Notes: a model not told the origin generated them from the letters alone. A DNA stretch of 16,588 nt from an uncultured Pseudomonadota bacterium (GCA_963770835.1 CAVYRH010000017.1:1-16588); one strand, 5' to 3'; shown: positions 26 to 16,588, counted from the stretch's first letter. Translations and numbers: made by a program.

Positions 26-78
26 ACCCGTAACACCTCATCCGAAGCGGCGCGATCTAAATAATTTACTGAATAAGC

Positions 79-1476: not shown

Positions 1477-1477
1477 A

Positions 1478-2704: not shown

Positions 2705-2727
2705 TTTTTATCCCTTTCTCTTCTAGA

Positions 2728-4206
2728 TCAAAACTGCAAAATGGCTCTGGATCCAATGACAAATTCGTTGCCGATCAAAGTGCCCGGTGCGTTGGGGTTT
2801 TCGATGCCGCCGCTTGGATTGAAGACGTACTGTATGTCCGGCTGAAGCTGGAACCAAGGAAAAACAAAGTATTGGTAAGTGGCCTCAACAAAAGTTTCTC
2901 CGCCCTGTTGAGGGCTGAAGGTACCCGGATTGAAATTACCCGTATCCGCCTCATATCCAGCCACCGCAGAACTGACATGGGCATAGCCCATGCCCAAACC
3001 GAAAACATCGTCCGTACGGTAAGCAAAAGGATCTTTCAGAACGAAGCCGAAATTAGCGCTGAAGTCGATCAAGTTCCGGTCCGGCGGGGCCCATAGAACC
3101 CGAGCGAACAAGCTAAGAGTACGATTCGGGTCTTTATCGCTCCGCCAGATCATTTGGTCTACTACGCCATAGATGGAGTAATTGCCCGTGTGATTCTGCG
3201 GGTTGCCATCGCTGTTGGGGTCCGCCAAGGACAAGCCATCGTCGCTATAGCGTTCATCCGCGAAATATTCACTGTTATACCAAGCGCCTAAACGGTAGGT
3301 GCCCGACAAGGCCGGCTTGGAGTCGTAAACCATGTCGCCCAAGGACGGAAAGGAATATTGGATCTCGGCGATGGCCATCACCCCGCCATTGAGTGGAAAG
3401 CTGAGGCCGTAGGGATCATCCATCTGCGAGTCCGCGCCCGGAGTCGGGTTGGGAGCTCCGTTGAAAACCCCGGCGAGAATATTAATACCGTCCACAGGCT
3501 TCCATTGCAAACGTACACCTAAGTCAGAAAGGGGATAAGCGGGTCCACCGCCCGGCATATCCGCTGAAGGCACCATGGGCCAGCCGAACATGGTATTAAC
3601 GAAGTAAGCAGCGTTACTGCTGTCCATAAATTCTTGGTCCAAGCTCTGTTGCCCAACTTTAACATCAAGACGACTGACCCCACTGCCGTCATAAAATTTT
3701 TGGTCATACCAAATTTCCCAGAAGCGGAACCCGTCTTCTGCCTCGATACCGCTGGCCGTCTGAAGAGTATCCAGATTCTGTTGACTTAGATTGATACCAT
3801 GAACGTTCAAACCGCTAATGTTCAAAAGGCCACCGTGCAGACCAAAGGCTCGAGATGTATCCAATTGAAGGACCGCCTGAGTCAGCCCATCGTAAGTCGC
3901 GCCCTGCTGAATACCACCCGTCAGGTTACCCAAAACCTCGCTGGTCTCTTGCAGGCTCAGCGACATACCAATACTGCTGAGCGCCTTTCGAAATCCCCAA
4001 AGATCACCGAAGAAATATTGGTTACGACTCATCCCATCCAGAAAACCAAAAAATCCAGTGTCCGGGTTCGAAAGAGTAGAATAATCCACCGGCACCGACA
4101 TCGGTGGTGGCGCGGCAAAAACCACGCCAGTCCCCATATAGAAAGCCACAAAAAGAACGACCCGTCTCAATGACAAAACCTGATGAAGTTTTAAATGGAT
4201 CTGCAA
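2728..4206 (-). CDS. OprB-family (carbohydrate-selective-type) outer membrane porin
   Basis: 492 aa. GDLWGFRKAL, EVLGNLTGG, KVGQQSLDQEF, GGGPAYP, EATY..QLQPDIQYVFNP motifs; C-terminal Phe; TTG start preceded by GGGGAG. Confidence 0.9.
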   Translation of the reverse strand: MQIHLKLHQVLSLRRVVLFVAFYMGTGVVFAAPPPMSVPVDYSTLSNPDTGFFGFLDGMSRNQYFFGDLWGFRKALSSIGMSLSLQETSEVLGNLTGGIQQGATYDGLTQAVLQLDTSRAFGLHGGLLNISGLNVHGINLSQQNLDTLQTASGIEAEDGFRFWEIWYDQKFYDGSGVSRLDVKVGQQSLDQEFMDSSNAAYFVNTMFGWPMVPSADMPGGGPAYPLSDLGVRLQWKPVDGINILAGVFNGAPNPTPGADSQMDDPYGLSFPLNGGVMAIAEIQYSFPSLGDMVYDSKPALSGTYRLGAWYNSEYFADERYSDDGLSLADPNSDGNPQNHTGNYSIYGVVDQMIWRSDKDPNRTLSLFARVLWAPPDRNLIDFSANFGFVLKDPFAYRTDDVFGLGMGYAHVSSAVAGYEADTGNFNPGTFSPQQGGETFVEATYQYFVFPWFQLQPDIQYVFNPSGGIENPNAPGTLIGNEFVIGSRAILQF

Positions 4207-4292
4207 CTTGATCTCCCCAATTGAGTATTTTTAGCTCGGTGTGTTTTACGCCCATCCCTGGCTTTCAAAAGGGCGACCCACATTCCACCCGC

Positions 4293-4556
4293 TTATTGCG
4301 GAAAGGAAAATTCTTCCCACTTGCCGCTATCGGTCAAACGATTCAATTGATCGACTAACCCCGGCAACGGGACAGCCGTCTCAGCGGCTAAACTCGAAAA
4401 AAGCTTGGTCATCGCCTTGATCTCCTCGGCGGATAAAAGAATGGTCTTGTTATTCAACTTCAGTGCCCCACGGCCGCACGAACACTGGCTCAAATGGCAT
4501 TGGCCCGCGCTGAATTGGCGTTCAATAGAATGTCCCACAATTACCCCCTCATTCAT
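4293..4556 (-). CDS. Small hypothetical protein with C-H-x3-C-x-C cluster
   Basis: 87 aa, co-oriented between hemP and the porin, ATG preceded by AGGGA; no family recognised. Confidence 0.55.
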   Translation of the reverse strand: MNEGVIVGHSIERQFSAGQCHLSQCSCGRGALKLNNKTILLSAEEIKAMTKLFSSLAAETAVPLPGLVDQLNRLTDSGKWEEFSFPQ

Positions 4557-4577
4557 TTCCCTGGCGATAGCTGGGTC

Positions 4578-4739
4578 TTACTTGGTCAAGTTCAACTTGT
4601 CATTCTTGGTGATACGCAATCGATACTCTTCATCACCGTGAACGATCAAAATTTCGTTCCGCCCCTCAAAAAGTAGCTCGGTGGTCAACCGAAGGGCTTT
4701 AGAAACGCCCTGTGCCTCAGTTTTGTTTTTCTGGTCCAA
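4578..4739 (-). CDS. hemP: Hemin uptake protein HemP/HmuP family (53 aa, absent from ORF track)
   Basis: Manual translation MDQKNKTEAQGVSKALRLTTELLFEGRNEILIVHGDEEYRLRITKNDKLNLTK matches the HemP pattern LF-G--E--I-H----Y-LR-T---KL-LTK; TTG start with GGAG RBS; Fur box directly upstream. Confidence 0.88.
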   Translation of the reverse strand: MDQKNKTEAQGVSKALRLTTELLFEGRNEILIVHGDEEYRLRITKNDKLNLTK

Positions 4740-4755
4740 AGGCCGCTCCACCTAA

Positions 4756-4772
4756 TTGATAATGATTATCAA
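4756..4772. promoter_or_regulatory. Fur box
   Basis: TTGATAAT-G-ATTATCAA contains the perfect 7-1-7 Fur consensus TGATAATnATTATCA, upstream of an iron/heme operon. Confidence 0.88.
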
Positions 4773-4792
4773 CATCACCACAATGATGTCAA
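4765..4792 (-). promoter_or_regulatory. Sigma70-type promoter of the hemP operon, -10 overlapped by the Fur box
   Basis: Minus strand TTGACA (4792-4787), 16 bp spacer, GATAAT (4770-4765). Confidence 0.65.
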
Positions 4793-5059
4793 CACAAAAT
4801 CCAAAAAAAGTTCCAAACTGACTCAACTTAGTATTTAAGAGATTAAAAAGAAGATCCGTACACACTGAGTGGGCGGTTGTTTCTGCGGCAAAAATACTCG
4901 GTCCGAAGATCAAGAAATCTGGATAGGCCTCTAGATCATACGTTTTCAACTAAACCCTCTGATCCAGCTTTGCTTCTACATTAGGCTGACGGCTATATAA
5001 ACCGGCAAGATTAAATAATTTGGTTCCATTAGAAATCCTTGTCCACCGCTTCGTTCTTT

Positions 5060-5087
5060 TGTCCACTCTGGGTCCCCATCGTGGACA
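5060..5087. repeat. 28-bp palindromic inter-module site, copy 2
   Basis: TGTCCACTCTGGG-TC-CCCATCGTGGACA. Confidence 0.92.
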
Positions 5088-5124
5088 ACTTAATCATCCC
5101 AAGTCTCGCCCTTTTTGTTGAATT

Positions 5125-5820
5125 CTAGTAAGTCGTTGTGGCGATATAATCCAGAACGAACTCCGAGTAAGAAGAGGCCCCTGGAAAACATCCATATTGG
5201 GTTGTATCGGCTCCCATATTGAGGGTATAGGATCCAGGGCTATAACCGGGCAAAGAACTATTCAAGAGGGTGTAGGGTGAAGTGAGGTTGGGCCCAAAGG
5301 TTTTGGAATAACTTCCGTTGATGGCAGTGAGATCGTTTTCATTTCCTCCTCCCACCCAAGTAATAGTCAAACTACCCGAACCCGGGGTGAATGTAATATT
5401 ACCTGGCGCTATTTCCGAAGCGGAATAAGTCTTTCCTCCAAAAATGGCCGTGACGGTATAGGGTTGGTTGGCCGTGTAGGTCCAGCCGCCATTGGTTGTT
5501 TGATAAGCGGCACAGGTTATGACCGTCGACCCGCCGGAATAGCTCAAGGTTTCGGTAGAGGTGGAACTTCCATTGGTGACATATGTCAAAGGTGCTGAAC
5601 CTCCGGAATAAGATAACGTAACGGCCGCATTGGTGACGGGTTGAGCGTTACTGTCGACAATACCAGCCGACATTTCCGTTAAACCGGTTGACACCAGGGT
5701 CGTGACGAAGATACCCGCGCCGTTCATTTGGAAGGTGGTCGGGCTGGTTGTGGGTTTGGAGGAACAGGAAACGAACATGACCATGGAGGTTATCAAAAAG
5801 GCAAAAATACAATTTTTCAT
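5125..5820 (-). CDS. Hypothetical lipoprotein, Ser/Thr/Gly-rich, beta-rich
   Basis: 231 aa. Signal peptide II with lipobox-like FVS-C; GAGGGG RBS; sole gene between sites 2 and 3. Confidence 0.8.
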   Translation of the reverse strand: MKNCIFAFLITSMVMFVSCSSKPTTSPTTFQMNGAGIFVTTLVSTGLTEMSAGIVDSNAQPVTNAAVTLSYSGGSAPLTYVTNGSSTSTETLSYSGGSTVITCAAYQTTNGGWTYTANQPYTVTAIFGGKTYSASEIAPGNITFTPGSGSLTITWVGGGNENDLTAINGSYSKTFGPNLTSPYTLLNSSLPGYSPGSYTLNMGADTTQYGCFPGASSYSEFVLDYIATTTY

Positions 5821-5885
5821 AATTACTTCCCCTCCATCAAATAACTTCTTTTAGGATACCACTTCCTTTAGAGAACCCAAGACCC

Positions 5886-5913
5886 TGTCCACTCTGGGTC
5901 CCCGTCGTGGACA
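5886..5913. repeat. 28-bp palindromic inter-module site, copy 3
   Basis: TGTCCACTCTGGG-TC-CCCGTCGTGGACA. Confidence 0.92.
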
Positions 5914-5953
5914 ACCCTTTTCCTCGAAATTTACCCGATTTTACACCTTTTGA

Positions 5954-7656
5954 CCGGAATTTCCCAGATGACCTTCTCTGAAAACATTGCCGGGTAATTT
6001 GTTTCTCATTATATCGCCCCCCCCCGCTTCTTCCATCCGAATCCGGAATTTTCCGTCCTGGGCCACTGAAATAAGCCCCAGGAAAAGGTTTCTGTGCCCA
6101 AAAAAGCTGAAATTGACCTTCTGGAAAGCCAATTCTCGTTGTGAGCGCACACCTATCCTGCGGTAGTCGCTCGGGTTGAAGCCTTGATGCCTTCCTGCGG
6201 TTATCGCAGTACTGGCGCTCGCGGCCTTACCATTGCCAGTAGCCGTATCCGATTGAGGATTTCAGCAAACAGGCGTCGGGAAACCATCACCTCCGCCATC
6301 TGGAAAATAACGTACCGCGAATGACGGATGACATTAGCCCCGATCTTGATGAGTTTTTCCCTCAAGGTCGTTAGCGACCAATGTTTCACCAGTTCTGGCA
6401 GTGCCAGTCGGCGCAGGAAGTTGCCCAGATTGTAGGCCAGGGCGAATAGTTGTAAGCGCACTTGGTTGTCCGCGAAGTCGTGGCAGCTTAGTCTTGTCCA
6501 CTTCATCGCATACTTTCCCTCTTTGATCCACTGCTCAGCCGTGCCTCTTCCGTTGTAGAATTTCACCACCTGGGGTGCCGGTCGTCGCATGTTCGTTACG
6601 ATGAAACCCACCTTTGGGAACAATTCCCCGTTGTGATGTTCGATCTTCGCCACCACGCGGCGGGGTTTGTCCCAGCTGACGGCTTGGTATTGGAAGCTGT
6701 GAAACCGGACAACCGGCTTGTGGGAGGGGCGGCCCACGGGACGGGTTAAAAATGGCTCGATTTCCCGTTGGAGTATGGCATTGGCAGGTTGGCGGATCGC
6801 GTAAAGATATCCTTCGTCTTCTAGGTATTCGTATAGTTCCTGACGGGCGAAAGCCGCGTCACCCCGGAAAAACCGGCTGATGGAAAGACCCCGGTAGCGG
6901 GCAACTACCGGTTCAAGAACCGAACGCCATTCGTGGGCACTGGCCACATTGCCGTTGCGCAACATAGCCCGTTCCAAATCGCCGAACTGGTTGAAGCAAA
7001 ACAGGGGATGGTAACAGGTACAGCCAAAGTAACCGTTGTACAAGGAACCTTCCTGATCCCCGTAGGTCTCGCTCACTGAGCTATCCATGTCGAGGATGAT
7101 CTGTTGTATGGGCTTTTTCTCATGGACTCCATCGATCCATTGGCCCGATAAGTCAATTAAGCCGGTCAAATTCTTCGACTGGGTGAGGACCTCCGTCTCG
7201 AAACGACCCATCTGGCTGGTGGAGGCGGCCTGTTTTTCCCTGGCCCGTCCTCCGATCACATGCCGCATCGCAGGATCGACACTCAGGCGTTCTGCGTCGT
7301 TGGTATCCTCATAACCGGCCAAGCGGCTGAATACCGACTGGCGAAGAAGCGCCGTCATCGTGTGTTGCGTATTCTTACCGGTCCGCCGATCCCAAAGGAT
7401 GTTTTCTGTTCTGTCAGTCAAACCAAAAGCTTCGTCGAGTTCGCGATAGGGAATCAACCCGCCATCGGAAGTGACCTTCGCACCATGGAACTCCAACTTG
7501 AGGCCAGGATCAAAAACCACCCGAAGAGCGTCTTTTCCGCCTTCACCCATTGCATTTCCCCCTCTCATGTTCCCCAACACGAAGAAAAACCTTTGTTTAT
7601 ATGGCCAAACGTTGTCTTATTATACTCGAAAGGAAATTCCATCTGGGAAATCCGGG
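5954..7656 (-). mobile_element. IS1380-family insertion sequence, 1703 bp, intact
   Basis: Terminal IRs CCGGAATTTCCCAGATG (5954-5970) and CATCTGGGAAATCCGGG (7640-7656), 15/17 match; 5-bp target duplication TTTGA at 5949-5953 and 7657-7661. Confidence 0.93.
6201..7550 (-). CDS. IS1380-family DDE transposase
   Basis: TSDGG, GYEDTND, ILDMDSS, YNGYFGCTCYHPL, RGDAAF and YNGRGTAEQWIKEGK motifs; start set at MGEGGK (ORF open from 7580). Confidence 0.95.
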   Translation of the reverse strand: MGEGGKDALRVVFDPGLKLEFHGAKVTSDGGLIPYRELDEAFGLTDRTENILWDRRTGKNTQHTMTALLRQSVFSRLAGYEDTNDAERLSVDPAMRHVIGGRAREKQAASTSQMGRFETEVLTQSKNLTGLIDLSGQWIDGVHEKKPIQQIILDMDSSVSETYGDQEGSLYNGYFGCTCYHPLFCFNQFGDLERAMLRNGNVASAHEWRSVLEPVVARYRGLSISRFFRGDAAFARQELYEYLEDEGYLYAIRQPANAILQREIEPFLTRPVGRPSHKPVVRFHSFQYQAVSWDKPRRVVAKIEHHNGELFPKVGFIVTNMRRPAPQVVKFYNGRGTAEQWIKEGKYAMKWTRLSCHDFADNQVRLQLFALAYNLGNFLRRLALPELVKHWSLTTLREKLIKIGANVIRHSRYVIFQMAEVMVSRRLFAEILNRIRLLAMVRPRAPVLR

Positions 7657-7814
7657 TTTGAAGCATATCGGGGTGTTGGTTCTGCCTGCGTTGAGGCCTC
7701 TAGCCGAAACGCAAGCCTTGGTAGTGCCGGTTCCATAAAGAACCGGCCTTTCTCCGGGGAGGGTCAAGGGAGGGGGTAGTTCCCTTCCCTGCAAATACAA
7801 CGAGGCCCGGCATT

Positions 7815-7865
7815 GGGAAGGTTACACGGCCAAAGGCCGGCGAACCTTCCTCAATCCCGATAGGG
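7815..7865. repeat. 51-bp exact direct repeat, copy 1 (hairpin-forming)
   Basis: GGGAAGGTTACACGGCCAAAGGCCGGCGAACCTTCCTCAATCCCGATAGGG, identical to 9739-9789. Confidence 0.9.
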
Positions 7866-7939
7866 CTGCCGGTCCGAGCAAAAAATAAAAGGCCTCAACT
7901 CCTGCGACGAGACCTCAAGTCGAGTCGTGCGGTTTGGAT

Positions 7940-7970
7940 GTGCCGAATCAACTAAAAAAAGATTCGGCAC
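7940..7970. terminator. Hairpin downstream of the radC operon, possible terminator
   Basis: GTGCCGAATC-N11-GATTCGGCAC, about 14 bp past the stop at 7984; no clear U-tract on the minus strand. Confidence 0.35.
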
Positions 7971-7983
7971 GGGGCCTCCGTTT

Positions 7984-8373
7984 TTAAACCGCCTTAACGT
8001 CCGGCAATTCGTTAATGTGTTTCTTTAAACATTTGGCGCATTGCTTCCCCTCCTTCCCGGCGATTGGATAGGAATCCTTCAAGAGAATTTCCTCGTTGCA
8101 CCCGTGGCACCAGGTCGCATAGGTATCATCCGAAAGGATTTGAGGAACCAATTTTTTAATAAGTCCCTTCCCTACCGTGGCCCGGCCAAATTCATAAGCC
8201 CAACGGGTGGCGGTGTACTTATCCTTTCCCGGCCAAGTAAGGCGGCGGTATTCGTCTCCCTGGGCGGCGTCCCCTCCGTCGTCGTCCTCCACCTTAAAAA
8301 CTTGTACGTCCGGAATATCCGAAACCACGTCGGACAAAACCCCACCTTCCATAAAAATGATAATTTTCGGCAT
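7984..8373 (-). CDS. Hypothetical protein with C-terminal CxxC..CxxC putative zinc finger
   Basis: Start reassigned to MPKIIIF (AAGGAGG RBS), 129 aa; CHGC and CAKC motifs. Confidence 0.7.
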   Translation of the reverse strand: MPKIIIFMEGGVLSDVVSDIPDVQVFKVEDDDGGDAAQGDEYRRLTWPGKDKYTATRWAYEFGRATVGKGLIKKLVPQILSDDTYATWCHGCNEEILLKDSYPIAGKEGKQCAKCLKKHINELPDVKAV

Positions 8374-8383
8374 AACGTCCTCC

Positions 8384-8680
8384 TTAAAGTTCGTATTTTT
8401 CGGCAAAGTATGAAAGCGATTCGACGGAAGCGGCGCAAACGTCCAGCGCGCGCGCGGCGGCCAAGCCGACAAGGGCGCTCCCGCCTTCCTCAAAATCCAG
8501 TTTTGAAAATATCGTTTCGGCCTGGTCGGTGAGGTAGTTGTTTAAAGCTCCCGCAACTTCCAAAAGGCCGTGATGGCTTACGAGAAACGCTAAAACGTCA
8601 TAAGGCTCGTAAGTCTCAAGGCGGTATTTTTTAAACTCCTTTACGGTTTCTTTTTCCGGCCCTAACAATTTGATTTCCAT
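8384..8680 (-). CDS. Hypothetical protein
   Basis: 98 aa, AGGAGG RBS, operonic between radC and the zinc-finger ORF. Confidence 0.7.
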   Translation of the reverse strand: MEIKLLGPEKETVKEFKKYRLETYEPYDVLAFLVSHHGLLEVAGALNNYLTDQAETIFSKLDFEEGGSALVGLAAARALDVCAASVESLSYFAEKYEL

Positions 8681-8720
8681 AAATCCTCCTAAAATTTTTC
8701 ACCCCCAAAGGGGCGATTTC

Positions 8721-9210
8721 TTAAACCAAAAGCCCTGCGGTACGGAAGGAAAAATGTCCTTCGTGGGTGACGATTAAATGGTCGTGAACGGTGATGCCCA
8801 AGGCACGGGCGGCGGTGATGATTTGGCGGGTCAATTGCTTTGTCCCCTTCGGAAGGTTCAAGGCTTCCGGCTGGGTGATTGTGGGAAAATATGATGCCCG
8901 TGGCGTTTAACTCCAAAGCTTTTTTTAGTACCTCTCTTGGATAAACGGCGGTATGGTCAACCGTTCCTTCGCTGTTCAAAACCGTTTCTAAAACATGGTT
9001 GCGGTGGTCGAGGTACATGGTGACAAAAGCCTCTTTGTCCCTGCCTCCGATGTATTTGGCAAAATAGGCCACTACATCATCCGGGCTTGTTACAACCGGG
9101 CCTCTCTCGTAATCGGCCCTTGCTTCGGACCATGAAACCGGGGGAACCGTGGGGGGAATTTTGAACATCACTTCCAAAGGCATTTCTAACTGCTTGATTC
9201 TCTTGCTCAT
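8721..9210 (-). pseudogene. radC: RadC-like JAB/MPN domain protein with a 1-base frameshift (real or sequencing error)
   Basis: EAF..YLD..N, GTVDHTAVYPREV, HNHPAGSLEPSEGD. Removing one T at 8839-8841 restores KQLTRQIITAARALGITVHDHLIV..HFSFRTAGLLV and a stop at 8721-8723. Confidence 0.88.
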
Positions 9211-9227
9211 TTTGAACGCTCCGCTTT

Positions 9228-9573
9228 TTTATTAGAGGAGAGAGCACCCTCCGGGTGCGCCCCCTCAAAAATCCTTGGGGGCGCATACGGAGCGAGTAAG
9301 GTGTTTGTGTTGGGGCAAATCAATGTCGGCGGGTCCTGCGCTTTGGTGTTAGCAGACCGGGAAAATTCCCAAACAGGTTTTGGGCCGAAAGACGAGGAAC
9401 GAGGCGTGGCCCGTTTGGGAATTTAGGCGCTGACCGATCCCGGCGGCGATAGCCGCCCGTCGATTTGGTTTGCTTCCACTATGTCTTTCGTTTCTGGGGT
9501 TGCCAGGGGTCACTGTCCCTTGGCTAGGGTGGGGATAAAGGGGAGGGTCTTTTCCCTCCCCCTGGGGGGTTCC
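9228..9573. repeat. Long structured non-coding leader, copy A, upstream of radC
   Basis: Collinear homology with 11576-11975; several hairpins conserved in position. Confidence 0.8.
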
Positions 9574-9738
9574 GGGGGATGGCTCGAACGAGCCCACCGC
9601 CCGGGCTAGGGTGGGCACCTGGCCCGTCGCTTTCAAAGCGAGGGCCTCGCAGTGGTGGTGCAAACAGCATTGAAGCTGTTTGCAAAAGGGTAGGGGTACT
9701 TCCCTTCCCTGCTTTTATGATTTTCGAGGCGCGGCAAA

Positions 9739-9789
9739 GGGAAGGTTACACGGCCAAAGGCCGGCGAACCTTCCTCAATCCCGATAGGG
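9739..9789. repeat. 51-bp exact direct repeat, copy 2
   Basis: Identical to 7815-7865. Confidence 0.9.
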
Positions 9790-9812
9790 GCCGCACCGAG
9801 ACAAAGAACACC
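9776..9812. repeat. 37-bp direct repeat flanking the addiction module, left copy
   Basis: CAATCCCGATAGGGGCCGCACCGAGACAAAGAACACC, one mismatch to 10586-10622. Confidence 0.9.
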
Positions 9813-9819
9813 TTAAAAC

Positions 9820-9856
9820 AAAAAAAGCCCCAACCGGTACAGAACCGGGGGGCTTT
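9820..9856 (-). terminator. Rho-independent terminator after the antitoxin gene
   Basis: AAAGCCCC(AA)CCGGT..ACCGGGGGGCTTT imperfect stem with a T7 tract on the minus strand. Confidence 0.65.
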
Positions 9857-9877
9857 ACATTTGAATTAGTTTTTTAT

Positions 9878-10195
9878 TTAGGCACTCTTTTTCCCGCGGG
9901 CGAGTTCCCTTTCAAATAGAATCCGCACCCCGAAAGCGTGAAGAACCTTTTCTAAACTCGAAAGGGTGGGATTTCCCTTCTCGGAAAGCATCGTGTAAAG
10001 GGATTCCCTCGCAAGTTGTGTTTCCTTGGAAAGCTTTTTCATCCCGCCTAGGGCGTCGGCCACGTTCTTCAATGCCTTCAAAAAGTATTTAAAATCTCCG
10101 GTTTCCCAAGCGGCGTTTATGTATCGGACCCGTGTTTTAAGGTCTTGAAGTTCTTCAAACAAATAACTTTTATGGTCAATCAATCCAAATTTCAT
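9878..10195 (-). CDS. Addiction module antidote, HTH antitoxin (HigA-like)
   Basis: 105 aa. FLKALKNVADALGGMKKLSKETQLARESLYTMLSEKGNPTLSSLEKVLHAFG; 4-bp overlap with the upstream toxin. Confidence 0.9.
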   Translation of the reverse strand: MKFGLIDHKSYLFEELQDLKTRVRYINAAWETGDFKYFLKALKNVADALGGMKKLSKETQLARESLYTMLSEKGNPTLSSLEKVLHAFGVRILFERELARGKKSA

Positions 10196-10530
10196 TTCAC
10201 GCTCCCTTTAAAAGCCGCCCATAGCTTGGTGGCTTTCTTTGTGTCATTATCCTGATTGTCTTTTTCTCCCCCACAAACCACGACGATGATGGCTCCCTTA
10301 TGATAGCCGTAATAAACCCGGAAACCTCTTCCGTAATGAATCCTTAATTCCCAAAGGCCCCCGGTCTTTGGCAGGTCGTGATGATCGCCAAAATTCCCGT
10401 CCTCCATCCGGTCAACCGCCATCCGTATAAGGTCCTTGGCGGTTTCGTCCTTTAAGCGGCGGTGCCACTCCTTGTATAAAACCTTACCGTCTACCTCCAA
10501 ATATTTAACTACAAAGGGGTGGTTTTCCAT
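10192..10530 (-). CDS. Addiction module killer, RelE/ParE-superfamily toxin (HigB-like)
   Basis: GNFGD, GGLWELRIHYGRGFRVYY and CGGEKDNQDND motifs; toxin-first order; start set at MENHPF just below the promoter. Confidence 0.9.
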   Translation of the reverse strand: MENHPFVVKYLEVDGKVLYKEWHRRLKDETAKDLIRMAVDRMEDGNFGDHHDLPKTGGLWELRIHYGRGFRVYYGYHKGAIIVVVCGGEKDNQDNDTKKATKLWAAFKGSVK

Positions 10531-10540
10531 GCCTGAACCT

Positions 10541-10569
10541 AGTGTAATATTTATATTACTCATTGTCAA
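10541..10569 (-). promoter_or_regulatory. Promoter and operator of the addiction module
   Basis: Minus strand TTGACA-17 bp-TACACT; inverted repeat GTAATAT-TT-ATATTAC at 10544-10559. Confidence 0.72.
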
Positions 10570-10585
10570 ATCTTCCTTTCGAAAA

Positions 10586-10622
10586 CAATCCCGAAAGGGG
10601 CCGCACCGAGACAAAGAACACC
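10586..10622. repeat. 37-bp direct repeat flanking the addiction module, right copy
   Basis: CAATCCCGAAAGGGGCCGCACCGAGACAAAGAACACC. Confidence 0.9.
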
Positions 10623-10624
10623 CC

Positions 10625-10660
10625 AAAAAAAGCCCCCCGGTTTGAAACCGGGGGGCTTTT
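10625..10660 (-). terminator. Rho-independent terminator after ardC, possibly bidirectional
   Basis: AAAAGCCCCCCGGTTT-G-AAACCGGGGGGCTTTT perfect inverted repeat with A/T tracts on both sides. Confidence 0.82.
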
Positions 10661-10684
10661 CTTCCTGAAAGGATGGAGCTGTTA

Positions 10685-11557
10685 TTAAGCGGCTTCCTCC
10701 TTCTTTTCAAATTTCACGCCTAAGATAAAGTCGGCTGCGGATTGGGCGAGTGATGCCGCCCGGAAAATGGCGCGGGTGTCATCCTTTAAAACCTTGATCC
10801 AGTTTTGGACATAGGCGGCGTGTTGGGTGTCGTATTCGTAGCCGACATGCCCAGCCAAGAAAGCCCCGCCTATTTCGGCGACAAGTTCCTCGAAGGCATA
10901 ATCAACTGAACCGAAAACCAGGGACTGCTTGCGGTTAAGCCGTTTTGGGTGGCCGCTCCAGTGCGTCAGCTCATGGTAACTCGTGGAAAAAAATTTCTCC
11001 TCCGTCTTGAAGGAATTGCGAGGGGGCAGGTTGATATAGTCCAAAGTTGGGGAGTAAAAAGCCTTGTCGGGGTTTTCCTCCACGATCTTCGCCCCGGATT
11101 GGGTGAGGATGCGCTCGGCCTCCTCGTTCTTGTTGAAAGGCTTTTCCTCGGCGCTCTTGGGCCGCAAGTGGTCAAGTCCCTCGGTCTGGTCAAGGTTGAA
11201 AACCGTAAAATATTTTAGGTATTTGATGACCTTCTTTTCAAAGTCCCCTTCCGCTTTTTCCTCCTTCACCGTTAAGGGCTTGAAGAAAATGACCTCAACC
11301 CCCTTGGCCCCGGCCTTGATGTTGCCTCCCGCTGTTTTGGCCTGTTGGTAGGTGAGCCAAGAGTTACAGGAAAAACCCTGATGGCTCGCAACCGAGGTAA
11401 GCCAAATGACATTCACCCCCCGGTAAGCCTTCCGGGTGGCGGCGTTCTTGGGGAAGTTCCCGGTTTTGATCCAGGGCGTTTCCCAAAAAAGATTTCCTTT
11501 CTCCATGTCCTCCAAAATTTGCTTGGTGATTTTCTCCATCAAATCGTTTGTTTTCAT
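10685..11557 (-). CDS. ardC: ArdC-family anti-restriction / ssDNA-binding protein (DUF1738 plus zincin-like domain)
   Basis: 290 aa. WETPW, YRGVN, WLTYQQA, FTVFNLDQTEG, AFYSPTLDYINLP, HELTHWSGH, YAFEELVAEIG and YVQNWIKVL motifs. Confidence 0.93.
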   Translation of the reverse strand: MKTNDLMEKITKQILEDMEKGNLFWETPWIKTGNFPKNAATRKAYRGVNVIWLTSVASHQGFSCNSWLTYQQAKTAGGNIKAGAKGVEVIFFKPLTVKEEKAEGDFEKKVIKYLKYFTVFNLDQTEGLDHLRPKSAEEKPFNKNEEAERILTQSGAKIVEENPDKAFYSPTLDYINLPPRNSFKTEEKFFSTSYHELTHWSGHPKRLNRKQSLVFGSVDYAFEELVAEIGGAFLAGHVGYEYDTQHAAYVQNWIKVLKDDTRAIFRAASLAQSAADFILGVKFEKKEEAA

Positions 11558-11575
11558 CTGGCCTGCTCCCTTTGA

Positions 11576-11975
11576 TTTATTAGAGGAGAGCCGCCCTCCG
11601 GGTGGGCCCCCTCAAAAATCCTTGGGGGCCCAAACGGAGCGAAAGAGGTGTTGTTTATGGAAAACCGAAGACCGGGGGTTGTGCGCTTTTCGGTTTTAAG
11701 CAAACGGGGATTTCTCTCCCCTGGCCTTGCTGGCCGGATAAGACGACAGAGGAGTCCCGGCCAAGGGGAGAGAAAAGGCGCTGACCGGTCCCCGCGACGA
11801 AGTCGCCCACGGATTTGGTTTTCTTCGAGAATGTTCTTTGCGGGTTTCAGGGGGGTACATAGGGGGAATTTCCCCTATGAGCGAAGCAAGGGGGTGTGGG
11901 GGATCGTGGGGTCACTTCCCGCCGGGCTAGGGATGGGAAAAGGGAAGGGTCTGTTCCCTTCCCTTGGGGGGTCCC
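11576..11975. repeat. Long structured non-coding leader, copy B, upstream of ardC
   Basis: Collinear homology with 9228-9573. Confidence 0.8.
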
Positions 11976-12077
11976 CACCCGGGCCAGGGCGGGTGAAGGG
12001 CAGGGGTAATTCCCTGCGGAAGGAAAAGTCAAAGAAGATAATCGTTTCCTAAAAAATCTGGTCTTAGAGGAGAGGAA

Positions 12078-12905
12078 ATGATAAATACCCCAAAAAAATC
12101 CATCCAAGCGGTTCTTTATGTCCGTGTTTCTTCGAAGGAACAGGAAAAAGGGGGCTTCTCCATCCCAGCTCAATTGAGATTGCTTCGGCAATATGGGCAA
12201 ACCCAAGGGTTTACCATTTTGAAAGAGTTCCAGGATGTGGAAACCGCCAAGCGATCCGGGCGGGAAGGCTTTGGGGAAATGGTCAATTTTCTTTTAAAAA
12301 ATTCGAGCTGCAAATATTTGTTAGTCGAGAAAACAGACCGCTTGTACAGAAATTTTAAGGATTATGTTTCTTTAGAAGATATGGATGTGGAGATCCACCT
12401 GGTCAAGGAAGGGTCCATCGTCTCGAATAATTCCAAATCGGCGGAAAAGTTCATCCACGGCATTAAGGTCTTAATGGCCAAGAACTATATTGATAACCTC
12501 TCCGAGGAAACGCGAAAAGGAATGACCGAAAAGGCGGCGCAAGGCATTTGGCCTACCGCTGCCCCTCTAGGTTACAAGAACATCACCGGTCGCAACGGCA
12601 AGAGAACCATAAAGCCAGTTCCCAAAATGAGCAGGATGATTCAATCACTGTATAAGGACTATTCGAAAGGTTGTTTTTCCCTCAATGAATTAACAAAAAG
12701 GTACTGGAAAAAGGGATTGGTGGTCCGCAAAAACAAAAGGAACCTGTCCAAGAGTTCCGTTTATAAAATCCTGACCAACCGGATGTATACGGGGTATTTC
12801 AAGTGGAGGGGGATCCTTTACCGTGGAAAGTACAAGCCCATCATTCCGCAAAAGCTTTGGGATAAAACCCAAAAGGTTTTGGGAAAACATTTCCGAATAC
12901 GATAG
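12078..12905 (+). CDS. Serine recombinase (resolvase catalytic domain plus recombinase DNA-binding domain, no zinc ribbon)
   Basis: 275 aa. YVRVSSKEQ catalytic Ser motif, S..AQ, VEKTDRLYRN, LSEETRKGM, APLGY, ILTNRMYTG, PII..LW; GAGGAG RBS. Confidence 0.92.
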   Translation: MINTPKKSIQAVLYVRVSSKEQEKGGFSIPAQLRLLRQYGQTQGFTILKEFQDVETAKRSGREGFGEMVNFLLKNSSCKYLLVEKTDRLYRNFKDYVSLEDMDVEIHLVKEGSIVSNNSKSAEKFIHGIKVLMAKNYIDNLSEETRKGMTEKAAQGIWPTAAPLGYKNITGRNGKRTIKPVPKMSRMIQSLYKDYSKGCFSLNELTKRYWKKGLVVRKNKRNLSKSSVYKILTNRMYTGYFKWRGILYRGKYKPIIPQKLWDKTQKVLGKHFRIR

Positions 12906-12919
12906 TCAGTAGTACTGAC

Positions 12920-12947
12920 TGTTCACTTTGGGTCCCCGTCGTGGACA
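12920..12947. repeat. 28-bp palindromic inter-module site, copy 4 (degenerate left arm, beside the recombinase)
   Basis: TGTTCACTTTGGG-TC-CCCGTCGTGGACA. Confidence 0.88.
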
Positions 12948-12961
12948 GCTGTTTTCGTTGA

Positions 12962-13246
12962 TTAATGGACGGCCAGATGGTGGCGTTTCTTCTTAGCCAA
13001 GTAGTGCTGGTCCAACCCCTGGCGAAGGATCGATTTGATCACTGCTTGCCGGCTAACATTCATTTCGCGAACTAATCCGTCTAATTCCTTAAGCATGTTT
13101 TCCGCAAAATCCACGTTAACTCTGCGGATGGCCGGCATCATTTTTCCGTGGTTCGTGAAATGTTTTGAAACATCCTCCCCCTTGTCTGCCATTTGAGCGA
13201 TTTTTTCCGCCGTTGGGGCAGCTTTTGATTTATGAATGCTTTTCAT
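12962..13246 (-). CDS. CopG/RHH antitoxin, BrnA-type
   Basis: Start set at MKSIHK (94 aa); RRVNVDF..ELD...NVSRQAVIK RHH motif; overlaps the BrnT stop. Confidence 0.82.
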   Translation of the reverse strand: MKSIHKSKAAPTAEKIAQMADKGEDVSKHFTNHGKMMPAIRRVNVDFAENMLKELDGLVREMNVSRQAVIKSILRQGLDQHYLAKKKRHHLAVH

Positions 13247-13508
13247 ATAGCTTCCTTTCTTCCTTGGTGGATTTCCAGAGAGTGACCAGGTGAAGGTATT
13301 CCCCCTCCCTGTCATACCTCTCTTCATAGATCACCGTATAAAGCCTATCCCCAACCCAACCAATAGCCCGCCATTGCTCCGGCACCTCGGATCGTTGATC
13401 CAAGTAGTAAGGGCTTTCCCAGAGTACCTGAACTTCCTCAAAACCGATTCCCCGTGTGGGGTTCCGGCGGAGACTATTGCTCTTTTTAGCATCGAACTTA
13501 AAACGCAT
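13230..13508 (-). CDS. BrnT-family ribonuclease toxin
   Basis: 92 aa. F.FD..K..., GIGFEE, RAIG, TVIYEER and KEERKLYE motifs. Confidence 0.85.
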   Translation of the reverse strand: MRFKFDAKKSNSLRRNPTRGIGFEEVQVLWESPYYLDQRSEVPEQWRAIGWVGDRLYTVIYEERYDREGEYLHLVTLWKSTKEERKLYEKHS

Positions 13509-13519
13509 CTAGGCTCCAT

Positions 13520-13556
13520 GTATAACTGTTATACCATCAATAATTTGATATCGCAA
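13520..13556 (-). promoter_or_regulatory. Promoter and operator of the BrnT/BrnA module
   Basis: Minus strand TTGCGA-17 bp-TATAAC; palindrome GTATAAC-T-GTTATAC at 13520-13534 over the -10. Confidence 0.7.
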
Positions 13557-13580
13557 GAAGGTTAATATTGTGAAATTTGC

Positions 13581-13608
13581 TGTCCACGACGGGTCCCCGT
13601 CGTGGACA
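13581..13608. repeat. 28-bp palindromic inter-module site, copy 5 (perfect)
   Basis: TGTCCACGACGGG-TC-CCCGTCGTGGACA. Confidence 0.95.
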
Positions 13609-13682
13609 ATAAACTTACTCGATTTTACCCATCAAGAATTGTTGGTGGCGAGTTCACCTAACATTTGTAGAGTCCAAACGAT

Positions 13683-14546
13683 CTATTTCTTATTTTTCAA
13701 AGCAGAAATATAAGGGTCCGTTTTCAATTTATTTTTAATTACTTCGTAAACACCGCCATCCACATCTTTTAGTTTATTAACGATCTGATCAGCCTCATCC
13801 CCCTTGAATATCCCGTAAAATTTATCCCATCCCTCCTTCATGCGGCCTTGATACCAATATAAAGTGGCGACTTTGCAAGCGTCATCTAGTATCCCATCCT
13901 GGCACTTGTCCCCCTTTAATTTTTCGAGCTCTTGGTCAAAAAACTTGGGAAACTTATCGTTTGCGGGAACATATTTTCGGATTTTCAGGTCATAAGCGAA
14001 AATGAGTTTTGGAACAACGCAAGAACCAAAGGCACCCAATAGATGCTTCCAAGGATCTGATAAATCGATTATTTCGACGTTCCCGTCGCCATTAATATCC
14101 TCCAACTCAAAATAACCCGCTCCCAACTGTCCGAAATCCCTGCCGCTGAATAAAACCGTCATTTCTTTTCCGAGGTTCAAAAACAGATAATCGCCGCCGC
14201 CATTCGCGCCTCCACCCCACCAACTGAGGACCAATTGGGTATCGGGGCCGGGGAATAACTTCCCGACTTGGATTTTGTTCCATTCCCGGCTCTGGTCATC
14301 CGTCCAGTCCGGATAGCTTTTCATCGCCATCCCCCAATAGGATTCGAGCACTTTTCCATTCTTTTTTACTTGGATTAAGATTGGATCTCCATAATCATCG
14401 GGATCGGTTGGCTTTGGTTTCAAATTGCGAACAATTTCATATTCCCCTATTTTTAAGTCATCACTTTTTATAACTTTGACTTCCGAACTAAAGAGTTCCG
14501 TCGGGAGAAGTATTAAAAAAAATATTCCAATTAATACTTTTTTCAT
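13683..14546 (-). CDS. Secreted hypothetical protein with one FG-GAP/EF-hand-like DxNGDG loop
   Basis: Start reassigned to MKKVLIGIFFLILLP (signal peptide; 287 aa); EDINGDGNVEI motif; sole gene between sites 5 and 6. Confidence 0.78.
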   Translation of the reverse strand: MKKVLIGIFFLILLPTELFSSEVKVIKSDDLKIGEYEIVRNLKPKPTDPDDYGDPILIQVKKNGKVLESYWGMAMKSYPDWTDDQSREWNKIQVGKLFPGPDTQLVLSWWGGGANGGGDYLFLNLGKEMTVLFSGRDFGQLGAGYFELEDINGDGNVEIIDLSDPWKHLLGAFGSCVVPKLIFAYDLKIRKYVPANDKFPKFFDQELEKLKGDKCQDGILDDACKVATLYWYQGRMKEGWDKFYGIFKGDEADQIVNKLKDVDGGVYEVIKNKLKTDPYISALKNKK

Positions 14547-14571
14547 CGTTGTATACCTTTCCAAAACTGTT

Positions 14572-14599
14572 TGTCCACGACGGGTCCCCATCGTGGAGA
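14572..14599. repeat. 28-bp palindromic inter-module site, copy 6
   Basis: TGTCCACGACGGG-TC-CCCATCGTGGAGA. Confidence 0.92.
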
Positions 14600-14617
14600 A
14601 GAAATACCGACTGCGTG

Positions 14618-15016
14618 TTAAAAGATTTGAACTTCCTTGATAACCCTGGCCATGTGGTTGAAATCCGCGTCATTATGCAAAAGCTGTAGCTTGTGCTCAA
14701 TCGCAACCTGGCAGATCAGGCAGTCTATGGAACTGCGGGGCGTAACACCTTTTTCCCGGCAGCGGAAATAAATCCGCGCCGCTTGGGCGTAGGATTCCAG
14801 GCCCCGCGTAACTCCATAAATGATTTGGGTATCCAGGTATTCCCGGAGATTCCGGAAATCTTTCTCGGAGGAAGCGCCCTGGAGGATTTCCTGATAGACG
14901 TGTTCGGTGATCCCATAGGGAACCCTGCGATCCAAAATCCCCTCAAACCGGTCCACTGCGGCGTTCCGCCGTTCCCTTAGGAAATCAATAAGAACCGACG
15001 TATCCACGAGGATCAA
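14618..15016 (-). CDS. vapC: VapC PIN-domain toxin
   Basis: 132 aa. MILVDTSVLID, EILQG, SSIDCLI and LLHNDADF PIN motifs. Confidence 0.93.
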   Translation of the reverse strand: MILVDTSVLIDFLRERRNAAVDRFEGILDRRVPYGITEHVYQEILQGASSEKDFRNLREYLDTQIIYGVTRGLESYAQAARIYFRCREKGVTPRSSIDCLICQVAIEHKLQLLHNDADFNHMARVIKEVQIF

Positions 15017-15219
15017 GAGCCGTGACTTACACGAAGCATTTTGTGGTCGTACCCTTTTCGAAAATGGACCTTGCCCTTCAGGTCCCGCAAATCGCGCCGG
15101 CCATGATGGGCCACGAATTCCCGCAAGGCGACCTCAAAAAGTTCTTTTTTTGTTTTAGCCCCTGAAAAGCGAAGGGCTTTTTGAACCAAGTCATCATCCA
15201 ACACAACATTCGTGCGCAT
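15013..15219 (-). CDS. vapB: VapB antitoxin
   Basis: Start set at MRTNVVLDDDLV..A....G.KTKKE (68 aa); AAGGAGG RBS; 4-bp overlap with vapC. Confidence 0.9.
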   Translation of the reverse strand: MRTNVVLDDDLVQKALRFSGAKTKKELFEVALREFVAHHGRRDLRDLKGKVHFRKGYDHKMLRVSHGS

Positions 15220-15235
15220 TTTTATACACCTCCTT

Positions 15236-15272
15236 ATACACCATCCTAGTGTATCGAAAGCCCGCCCGTCAA
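15236..15272 (-). promoter_or_regulatory. Putative vapBC promoter and operator
   Basis: Minus strand TTGACG-18 bp-TAGGAT; inverted repeat ATACAC-N7-GTGTAT at 15236-15254 straddling the -10. Confidence 0.55.
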
Positions 15273-15365
15273 CGAACGTTGTCCGTTCCATCGGGGCTTA
15301 ATCATTTCACCCTGAGCGGCTAACAGGCCCTGGTAGCCCAAAGTCAAATAATCAGTACCACTGAT

Positions 15366-15393
15366 TGTCCACGACGGGTCCCCGTCGTGGACA
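15366..15393. repeat. 28-bp palindromic inter-module site, copy 7 (perfect)
   Basis: TGTCCACGACGGG-TC-CCCGTCGTGGACA. Confidence 0.95.
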
Positions 15394-15465
15394 GGTGTTT
15401 CGTCAATCCCATAATTCATGTTAGCGATCATTCGCAAGGAAAATTTTAACTTATTTAAGGCGGCT

Positions 15466-16588
15466 TTAGCGGATGACCAGAACCTTTAATATTTTAGAGG
15501 CCTTGACCGGGCCGGTGACTTGAACCCTTAAGTAGTAAAGCCCGCTGGCCACCGGTTTTTTCCAGGCATCTTCCATATCCCAAACCAGAACCGTGCTATT
15601 GCCACTAACCCCATTGGAAACATCGAGTATCTTGCGGAAAGCCGTCGTGAAAACACTCCACTCGACGGTGGAACCAGCCGGTAACTGTATTTGTAAGGAC
15701 ACTGGACTCGGGCCTTGGACTGGGTTGGGATAAGGTGGGCCGATGCTGACCGTGGAAACGGTGGCCGAAGGACTGGGAGTCGCGGAGGCCGTGGGCGTGC
15801 CGGTGGGCTGGGGGGTCGGGCTCCAAGACGGGGTCGGCGTTTCCGTGCGGGTAGGGCTGTCCGAGGGCGACGGGGTGGGCGTAAAGGTCGCCGTGGGTGA
15901 GGAGGTGTCGGTAATCGTCGGCGTCAGGGTGGAGGTGGAGGTGGGAGTCCAAGTCGGAGTGAGCGTGGTGGAATTGGTGGCGGTTTCCGTCGCGGTGAAG
16001 GTGGCAGTCCAGCTTGCGGTGGGGGTCGGCGTAGCCGTCATCGAACTAGTGGGCGTGCCGGTGGGGGTCGAAGTGGCCGTCCAGGTGAGGGTGGCCGTCG
16101 GGCTCAAGGTCGCCGTATGGGTGGGTGTGAGAGTGGGGCTATTGGTGGCGGTCAGGGTGGGGGTGGATGTGGGAGTGGAAGTGTACCAGGTTCCCGTGGG
16201 GGTGGCGGTGGGCAGGTGGAGACGCCCGGGTAAAGCTGCAGGGAAGAAACCCCCTGGAAGGTGATCCCCGGCCCGGCCCAGTACAAAGCCGCCTCGGCGG
16301 CGGCAGTGTCCTGGTAGTAATCCATTTCGATGGGATAAAGGGCTCCCGCCTGCATGGTGAAGGGGGTGTGCCGGCCAGAAGGTATACGATTGGTCGGCCC
16401 AGTGGTTGACGATGGTGTAGGGCGTGGAAGTGGCGATGTCGGTCACGATCAGCCGACAGCCGTCGTCCGTCAAGGTGTAGAAAGTGTAGACACCCGTATT
16501 GGGCGGCTGTACGAACCCGGTGTATTCAATGGAAAATTTTGTCGATAAAACCCCGCAACCGGTGACCGTCAAGCCGCCACCCGACGAT
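15466..16588 (-). CDS. 5'-truncated secreted/surface protein: PA14 domain, Thr/Pro-rich linker, C-terminal FlgD-Ig / T9SS-CTD-like domain; two compensating frameshifts
   Basis: Frame open to the window edge. PA14-like [16 protein letters not shown]...DDG.RL, continued in another frame as [22 protein letters not shown]; long TPT repeats; tail PYPNP..VFT...RKI..WD..D....VASGLYY..KVLVIR. Confidence 0.8.

Follow-up and report, generated by a model that had tools for sequence, protein, structure and literature searches.

A short serine recombinase as the probable partner of a 28-bp cassette site conserved in a family of the candidate phylum FCPU426

The 28-bp site that lies behind the stop codon of a 275-aa serine recombinase gene is probably the recombination site of that recombinase itself; of the readings that we weighed, this one was the best supported by the comparative sequence data described below. 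The window, i.e., the whole stretch of 16,588 nt that was analyzed, is the entire contig C17 of the source genome G000, a 4.58-Mb metagenome bin of 26 contigs, which was placed via named relatives in the candidate phylum FCPU426 and represents a soil bacterium. The comparison genomes were likewise metagenome bins, with 99 in the phylum, 30 others in the family of G000 (f1), and one in the sister family (f2).

The features of the window are listed in Table 1. All ORFs of the window with a Pfam match lie on the minus strand, with the exception of the recombinase gene, and the two toxin-antitoxin pairs, BrnT/BrnA and VapBC, are each found between two sites. PADLOC and NCBIfam searches gave no matches for the window ORFs of unknown family, and a promoter and terminator scan around the recombinase gene yielded nothing that exceeded shuffled sequences. 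The sole Rfam match in the window was a sub-threshold one to the sX6 sRNA on the minus strand (10610-10749; 29 bits, gathering score 40), which is probably a chance match. The structured repeat of about 280 nt is positioned upstream of radC and of ardC and directly in front of the recombinase gene. Further copies were found elsewhere in G000 (C3:407516-407871 and 409934-410215) and at the loci L001 and L002. The repeat is conserved among relatives; as single-stranded DNA it has a strong fold (z = -5.45), and it may be a single-strand promoter of the leading-region type. The genomes G048 and G054, which belong to other genera, have copies of the DDE transposase (DDE_Tnp_1_4) with a protein identity of 100% for the G048 copy and 99% for the partial G054 copy, and such near-identity across genera indicates either recent transfer or cross-binning. 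Two further repeats were observed in the window, a 24-nt-periodic G-rich coding repeat in the PA14/GLEYA-like gene (15863-16182; eight copies, 61-74% alike) and five copies of a GGGAAGGG...CCCTTCCC hairpin repeat (7756-7790, 9527-9561, 9676-9710, 11930-11964, and 11986-12020).

Table 1. Features of the 16,588-nt window, in order of position
Feature	Position	Strand	Basis or remark
Cut site at contig start	1..25	+	TCCACGACGGGTCCCGTCGTGGACA, consensus minus one C
5-kb inter-site segment: Dyp peroxidase 79-1476, SGL-like 1478-2704, OprB porin 2728-4206, 87-aa ORF	26..5059	-	ORF calls, Pfam
28-bp site TGTCCACTCTGGG-TC-CCCATCGTGGACA	5060..5087	+	Site scan
Single-gene cassette, ORF 5125-5820, 231 aa, without family match	5088..5885	-	ORF calls, Pfam/PADLOC/NCBIfam
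28-bp site TGTCCACTCTGGG-TC-CCCGTCGTGGACA	5886..5913	+	Site scan
7-kb segment with the recombinase at its right end	5914..12919		Pfam, locus comparison
Content of the 7-kb segment: DDE transposase 6201-7580, RadC 8689-9210, HigA/HigB-like pair 9878-10710, ArdC-like 10685-11557			
Structured repeat within the 7-kb segment	9218-9499, 11558-11840		
Short serine recombinase, 275 aa, ATG start	12078..12905	+	Catalytic and recombinase domain only
14-nt spacer with small palindrome TCAGTAGTACTGA	12906..12919	+	Palindrome present too behind the G048 ortholog
Recombinase-adjacent 28-bp site TGTTCACTTTGGG-TC-CCCGTCGTGGACA, variant left arm	12920..12947	+	Site scan
BrnT/BrnA-like toxin-antitoxin cassette (12962-13327, 13230-13508)	12948..13580	-	Pfam
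Perfect 13-TC-13 site	13581..13608	+	Site scan
Cassette, ORF 13683-14591, 302 aa, no known family; identical copy on contig C15 with a different left neighbour	13609..14571	-	
28-bp site TGTCCACGACGGG-TC-CCCATCGTGGAGA	14572..14599	+	Site scan
VapBC toxin-antitoxin cassette; identical copy on C15 with a different right neighbour	14600..15365	-	Pfam
Perfect 13-TC-13 site	15366..15393	+	Site scan
Start of the next segment: repeat-rich PA14/GLEYA-like protein, runs off the contig	15394..16588	-	ORF calls, Pfam

A genome-wide domain search identified the window gene as the sole gene of G000 with a Resolvase domain and its sole serine recombinase gene, so that a competitor of the same class is absent from this genome. 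Pfam placed a Resolvase domain (PF00239, E 2.1e-22) at residues 11-157 and a Recombinase domain (PF07508) at residues 186-268 of the protein, and a zinc-ribbon domain (PF13408) was not found by the same search; the earlier note, which had described the only plus-strand gene as encoding a 275-aa serine recombinase that ends after its DNA-binding domain, was therefore correct on both counts as far as ORFs with Pfam matches are concerned. Residues Y14, R16, S18, and D87-R88..R91 (the YxRxS and DR..R motifs) were invariant in 25/25 aligned sequences, and these motifs correspond to R8/S10/D67/R68/R71 of gamma-delta resolvase. The protein thus has the Resolvase-type catalytic domain, the nucleophile serine, and the Arg and Asp-Arg..Arg motifs of the serine recombinase superfamily. 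Its C-terminal half is the larger recombinase domain, in contrast to the short helix-turn-helix of small serine recombinases, which are about 180-210 aa in length. With the large serine recombinases it shares PF07508 behind a long E helix, but neither the zinc ribbon with its embedded coiled coil nor the length of about 450-700 aa. The best NCBIfam matches were to CcrB and CcrA, far under cut-off.

The short length was a constant feature of the closest relatives. In all 19 of the closest protein clusters (65-88% identity) the protein consisted of 275-283 aa with Resolvase and Recombinase domains only, and alignment placed the end of all 19 short sequences where the CGHCG zinc-ribbon stretch of their long relatives starts. 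The short forms made up one clade in a quick tree (SH-aLRT 99). Homologs at 59% identity or less were ordinary large serine recombinases of 350-650 aa, with the closest of these longer relatives at 46-59% identity, and the best 80 genome loci comprised three short forms and 77 proteins of 350-650 aa. The dN/dS values among five orthologs were 0.08-0.16 (seven of the ten pairs had an estimable dS), which indicates that the short recombinases are under purifying selection. An AlphaFold model of the protein (mean pLDDT 77; helix 120-154) contained a complete recombinase domain, and its best structural matches were integrases in complex with DNA, namely those of SPbeta, Bxb1, and PhiC31. The C-terminal half of the model fitted the recombinase domain of LI integrase (4kis_C) with 2.1 A over 131 columns, and resolvase structures matched the N-terminal part only. 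The predicted fold is accordingly that of a large serine integrase minus its tail. Taken together, these comparisons demonstrate that the 275-aa protein is full-length and belongs to a conserved subfamily of short serine recombinases.

The TAG stop codon of the recombinase gene (12903-12905) precedes the adjacent site by 14 nt; the adjacency that the earlier note had reported was confirmed, with a spacing one nucleotide shorter than the 15 given there. A perfect 13-TC-13 palindrome had also been ascribed to this copy, whose left arm in fact deviates at four of the 13 positions, so that it is an imperfect palindrome; two other copies in the window, beginning at 13581 and 15366, do have the perfect form. 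The 28-mer was found at four places in the window at three mismatches or fewer and never in 200 shuffles, and its right-arm 17-mer occurred in six full sites as well as in the cut one at bases 1-25; the repeat in the window is thus beyond chance. Across G000 we counted 82 copies at up to five mismatches and 85 at up to six, in co-oriented arrays on 15-16 contigs. Conservation among 83 aligned copies was limited to the 28 bp, with its peak at T14-C17 and in the right arm and its minimum at left-arm positions 7-10, and no T-run followed the hairpin on the gene strand. With a frequent right-arm variant, CCCCATCG, an ATG arises on the gene strand; ORF 13683-14591 begins inside site 14572-14599. 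The T-rich consensus to the left of the sites, taken from left flanks genome-wide, corresponds to AGGA-type ribosome-binding sites on the gene strand. From the in-site ATG and these ribosome-binding sites, many cassettes may be promoterless and read through the sites.

To define the distribution of the site, the right-arm 17-mer was scanned at up to one mismatch and was found in 26 of the 30 other family genomes and in the single sister-family genome, which gives 27 site-bearing family genomes with G000 counted. The remaining genomes among the 99 in the phylum yielded merely three mismatched 17-mer matches, in two genomes, and the reversed pattern, used as a control, gave almost no matches; a site scan at three mismatches produced noise in site-poor genomes. 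The right arm was nearly invariant across 17 genera, and G054, a near-complete genome of five contigs, had at least ten separate site clusters. These alignments and scans demonstrate that the site is conserved family-wide. A site or array was located 42-48 kb from the gene for a Xer-like protein in five genomes that represent three genera (G000 C11, G047 C12, G048 C6, G050 C1, and G054 C1), which suggests that this array position is old and syntenic.

Next to the sites themselves, we analyzed what lies between them. The 55 inter-site intervals of up to 4 kb in G000 had a median length of 963 bp (range 293-3608), the genes ran opposite to the site orientation in 53 of them, and neighbouring sites of mixed orientation within 10 kb were absent from this genome. 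Three cassettes were present in two to four identical copies with differing neighbours, and the breakpoints fell in the site. Because G000 is a metagenome bin, identical copies on different contigs could be strain variants in one bin and not two loci; the breakpoints lie in the site whichever holds. The point of exchange was mapped with 146 sites from G000 and the fetched loci. In 26 pairs with only the left flank in common, the differences were found at positions 19-23 and never at 12-18, and in nine pairs with only the right flank in common, they extended up to position 13 and were never found at 14-19. The differences in these flank-sharing pairs place the exchange within positions 14-18, around the central TC, and, as far as aligned sites can tell, demonstrate shuffling of cassettes by exchange inside this interval. 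Public sequencing contigs (short; four runs from three studies) also end at site borders, one contig of 826 nt covering exactly 14572-15393 and another linking an intron end to 14572; since what supports these joints is 20-30 nt of the repeat itself, they were not counted as evidence of excision. The cassette genes point toward the recombinase, i.e., they are convergent with it, so that there is no integron-style expression platform.

The linkage between gene and site was examined at 14 recombinase 3' ends, truncated copies and remnants included, and in all 14 a site was found 14-36 nt past the stop codon (G000; four copies in G048; one each in G070, G072, and G067; two in G054; G052; G055; and the metagenome contigs L111 and L112). 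Two expectations raised with the earlier note, a conserved length of about 275 aa and palindromes beside the homologs, were thus borne out. The copies of G048, one intact and three 5'-truncated, all abut a site, as do one intact copy and one 26-aa remnant in G054 and the truncated copies or remnants in G070, G072, and G067; in G055 the recombinase-adjacent site is cut after position 16-17 by the end of a group II intron, and the L111 contig ends inside its site. A metagenome scan recovered L111 and L112 as the only divergent short-form loci. The site was found at none of 155 long-form loci (0/77 genome loci, at up to seven mismatches to the 28-mer, and 0/78 metagenome loci). The G000 and G048 loci cease to be homologous precisely where the site ends. 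Of the 12 genome copies, nine head an array: the 7.7-36.8 kb that was fetched upstream of them is free of like-oriented sites, and arrays run downstream. Truncated copies head several of the arrays; no recombinase remnants were found at the other arrays of G000. In the window, sites flank the recombinase gene on both sides, and the gene lies inside the 7-kb two-site segment.

An intact short recombinase was found in 5 of the 27 site-bearing family genomes (G000, G048, G052, G054, and G055), with remnants in three more, and no Resolvase domain at all was detected in G047, G050, and G067, which are 90-99% complete and have 31-40 site matches. As the genomes are metagenome bins, absence of the gene is weak evidence either way. 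Site matches numbered 74, 62, 59, 46, and 19 in the genomes with an intact gene, and the 22 remaining site-bearing family genomes had a median of 8.5, a contrast that is only suggestive because relatives are not independent. A gene so scarce beside a right arm so nearly invariant implies that the recombinase visits often, that the site has a second function, or that a different enzyme is at work. The surroundings of the gene varied: in G054, core genes (ligA and the rib operon) reach right up to the recombinase, with no mobile-element genes upstream; in G048, the recombinase is at the end of an ICE-like element with a TraG/VirB4-like P-loop protein, ArdC, and DUF2958; and in G000 and G055 it is found beside ArdC and RadC. 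The ICE-like element and the ArdC/RadC contexts suggest that the recombinase-carrying unit is itself mobile and may serve arrays in trans.

From these data we infer that the short recombinase, and not another enzyme, performs the cassette exchange. A recombinase dimer would bind the two 13-bp arms via its recombinase domains and make a 2-base staggered cut at the central TC, the presumed cut position. The protein has no zinc ribbon and coiled coil, which confine large serine integrases to the attP x attB reaction, and it would thus recombine any two like-oriented sites, probably without directionality. Circular cassettes would in this way be excised and re-inserted, and likewise the larger element that carries the recombinase gene, and a single recombinase copy would be able to serve many arrays in trans, at times arriving on a mobile element. 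In the structure of LI integrase bound to attP, half-site positions 1-12 are taken up by the recombinase domain, whose helix H contacts positions 9-11, and the zinc ribbon reads positions 16-24 (PMC3783163). About 13 bp per half-site would be expected for a recombinase without the zinc ribbon, and the size of the site appears to fit the recombinase domain by analogy, its best-conserved outer block, TGGACA, being at half-site positions 9-14.

The short recombinase could instead be the integrase of its own ICE or IME only, using the abundant 28-bp sites as landing pads while some other enzyme moves the small cassettes. We regard this as unlikely, since a second candidate enzyme near the arrays was not found, and since an enzyme that joins its own element to identical sites, with no coiled-coil control, would act on pairs of cassette sites too. 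The ICE-like genes upstream of the recombinase in G048, the occurrence of ArdC/RadC in G000, G048, and G055, the location of the window gene within a two-site segment, and the many site-bearing genomes that are devoid of the gene, which are the majority, would all be in accord with an element-bound integrase; the G054 gene, which abuts core chromosomal genes, and the several arrays headed by truncated recombinase copies would not.

The 28-bp site can also be parsed as 11-6-11, and the earlier note had offered as an alternative that the sites are of the Xer/dif type. The single Xer-like tyrosine recombinase of the family, encoded elsewhere, would then shuffle the cassettes as in IMEX and pdif modules, and the serine recombinase would be a passenger. 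A phylum-wide scan found f1 and f2 to be without the canonical dif core that is present in most other families of the phylum, and one divergent Xer-like protein was detected in 29/30 genomes of f1 and 1/1 of f2, with two matches at 26-34% identity in other families; its distribution equals that of the site, a match that amounts to a single clade-level event and not to many independent ones. In 11/11 genomes, however, the Xer-like gene is preceded at 10-60 nt by an AT-rich palindrome of the 11-6-11 type whose outer arms co-vary (xxxxxxTATAA-TTACAG-TTATAxxxxxx; in G000, palindrome C11:156017-156046 and gene C11:156053-157114; in relatives, loci L100-L110). This palindrome is likely the dif of the Xer-like protein, which argues that the enzyme reads a sequence other than the GC-rich cassette site. 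Furthermore, positions 12-13, which would fall inside a 6-bp overlap, are not the same in recombined partners and go with the left flank, and the ten or more separate arrays in the near-complete G054 also speak against Xer. With the only Xer-like enzyme that matches the site distribution having a different site of its own, we consider it quite improbable that this enzyme moves the cassettes. Tyrosine recombinases were not a feature of the array surroundings: none of 23 matches in G047, G050, and G067 was within 40 kb of a listed site, and only one of 12 matches in G000 was within 1.5 kb of a site.

As to the Xer-like protein itself, it scored below the XerC and XerD cut-offs of NCBIfam, and f1 and f2 appear to have swapped XerC/XerD and the canonical dif for this one divergent recombinase. 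A search of G000 with a canonical dif core gave nothing, a result that has meaning only through the phylum-wide scan. A second, similar AT-rich palindrome was noted at G000 C12:15232. The GC skew in G000, with which we attempted to place the arrays and the Xer-like gene relative to the replication terminus, was weak.

It is very improbable that the palindromes are REP-like or terminator hairpins that spread by non-recombinational means between immobile "cassettes": the site is indeed a GC-rich hairpin between genes, and G000 does have Y1 transposase genes, but these are multi-copy, IS200/IS605-like, and not paired with sites, the hairpin has no T-run on the gene strand, the sites are in co-oriented arrays with no mixed-orientation neighbours within 10 kb, and identical cassettes have different neighbours with breakpoints inside the site. 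Least credible of all is a truncated, decaying, and now functionless remnant of a large serine recombinase, the passenger gene of the earlier note, because the length of the relatives at 59% identity or less and the truncated copies in G048, G070, and G072 are outweighed by the identical end point in 19/19 clusters, the low dN/dS, the invariant catalytic motifs, and the complete recombinase domain of the model.

Several other elements were associated with the sites. Two group II introns target the 28-bp site, at G000 C11:109925-110725 (L097) and C3 about 106000-107984 (L098), with none in the window. One is an ORF-less intron of 802 nt (Rfam RF02003, RF00029) that begins directly after the site and is present in about ten copies; the other has a 455-aa ORF, is present in five copies, and interrupts the site behind position 17, and the intron end that cuts the recombinase-adjacent site of G055 is the same as that of this second intron. 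An IS110-family transposase of 360 aa was found directly beside sites, and a second type, of 387 aa, inside copies of the ORF-less intron (IS110-family loci in G000: C3:45465-45899, C3:82058-82492, C8:165209-165643, C3:102573-102980; C26:878874-880034). IS110 was considered as a cassette mover and rejected, and so were RAYT, as the 11 Y1_Tnp matches were to IS-like genes in multiple copies (one lies within an array) and the sites were clustered, not single, and IntI, as the 3 of the 12 tyrosine recombinases of G000 that were scanned against NCBIfam fell far under the integron-integrase cut-offs.

To our knowledge, no well-established system other than the integron stores single-gene cassettes and shuffles them. 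Integrons rely on a tyrosine recombinase and on folded single-stranded attC sites, which are imperfect, 57-141 nt in length, and composed of R''/L''/L'/R' boxes, and which serve as targets for group II introns and IS110-family elements. Like integrons, sedentary chromosomal integrons, and CALINs, the arrays described here consist of cassettes in one orientation, most of them with a single gene and many with toxin-antitoxin pairs, with one short site between cassettes, a fixed polarity of genes relative to sites, and many arrays without a recombinase, and the 28-bp sites are likewise targets of group II introns and IS110-family elements. In contrast to integrons, the linked enzyme is a serine recombinase and not the tyrosine recombinase IntI, the site is a 28-bp double-strand palindrome and not a folded attC with R and L boxes, and there are many arrays per genome whose cassettes face the recombinase, with no Pc-type platform. 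Of the marks of an integron, we thus found the co-oriented array with one site per cassette, but neither IntI, attC, nor a platform promoter. The serine-recombinase analogue of an integron put forward in the earlier note was upheld in part, namely in the conserved length and the site linkage; the lack of a fixed platform, the intact copy in only 5/27 genomes, the sites on either side of the window gene, the cassette genes that face the recombinase, and the ICE-like context in G048 do not agree with it.

In comparison with the large serine integrases (LI/A118, Bxb1, PhiC31, and SPbeta), the short recombinase has the same catalytic and recombinase domains in sequence and fold, but it is half the size, lacks the zinc ribbon and coiled coil, and is associated with sites that are alike and of 28 bp, whereas theirs are distinct attP and attB of 40-50 bp. 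In SCC/SCCmec with CcrAB/CcrC, a serine recombinase and repeated attachment sites part tandemly stacked mobile units. The present system resembles SCC in its serine recombinase and in repeated sites that separate stacked mobile units, whereas the Ccr proteins are full-length large serine recombinases that move units of 3-60 kb at one insertion point, the end of rlmH. In IMEX elements and the pdif modules of Acinetobacter, 28-bp sites bound small modules, often toxin-antitoxin pairs. Such Xer-dependent modules have in common with the present cassettes the 28-bp sites with a possible 11-6-11 parse around small toxin-antitoxin modules; the present case differs in that the host Xer-like enzyme has its own AT-rich neighbour site in 11/11 genomes, that all sites are in direct orientation, and that a serine recombinase is physically linked.

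Among the titles and abstracts listed by our literature searches, none described such a serine-recombinase cassette system. We see the evidence as evenly balanced on the broader proposal that a minimal serine recombinase and one 28-bp site may form a complete, family-wide gene-capture system, a convergent, double-strand serine counterpart of the integron in which one recombinase copy, sometimes brought in by a conjugative element, would be sufficient for ten or more arrays in a genome. This recombinase would then be the smallest natural integrase of the large serine lineage, acting on identical short sites with no control of direction. If this is true, it would provide a compact enzyme and a short site for DNA engineering, it would reveal how a large serine integrase behaves once the zinc-ribbon/coiled-coil control module is removed, and it would mean that gene-cassette capture evolved more than once.
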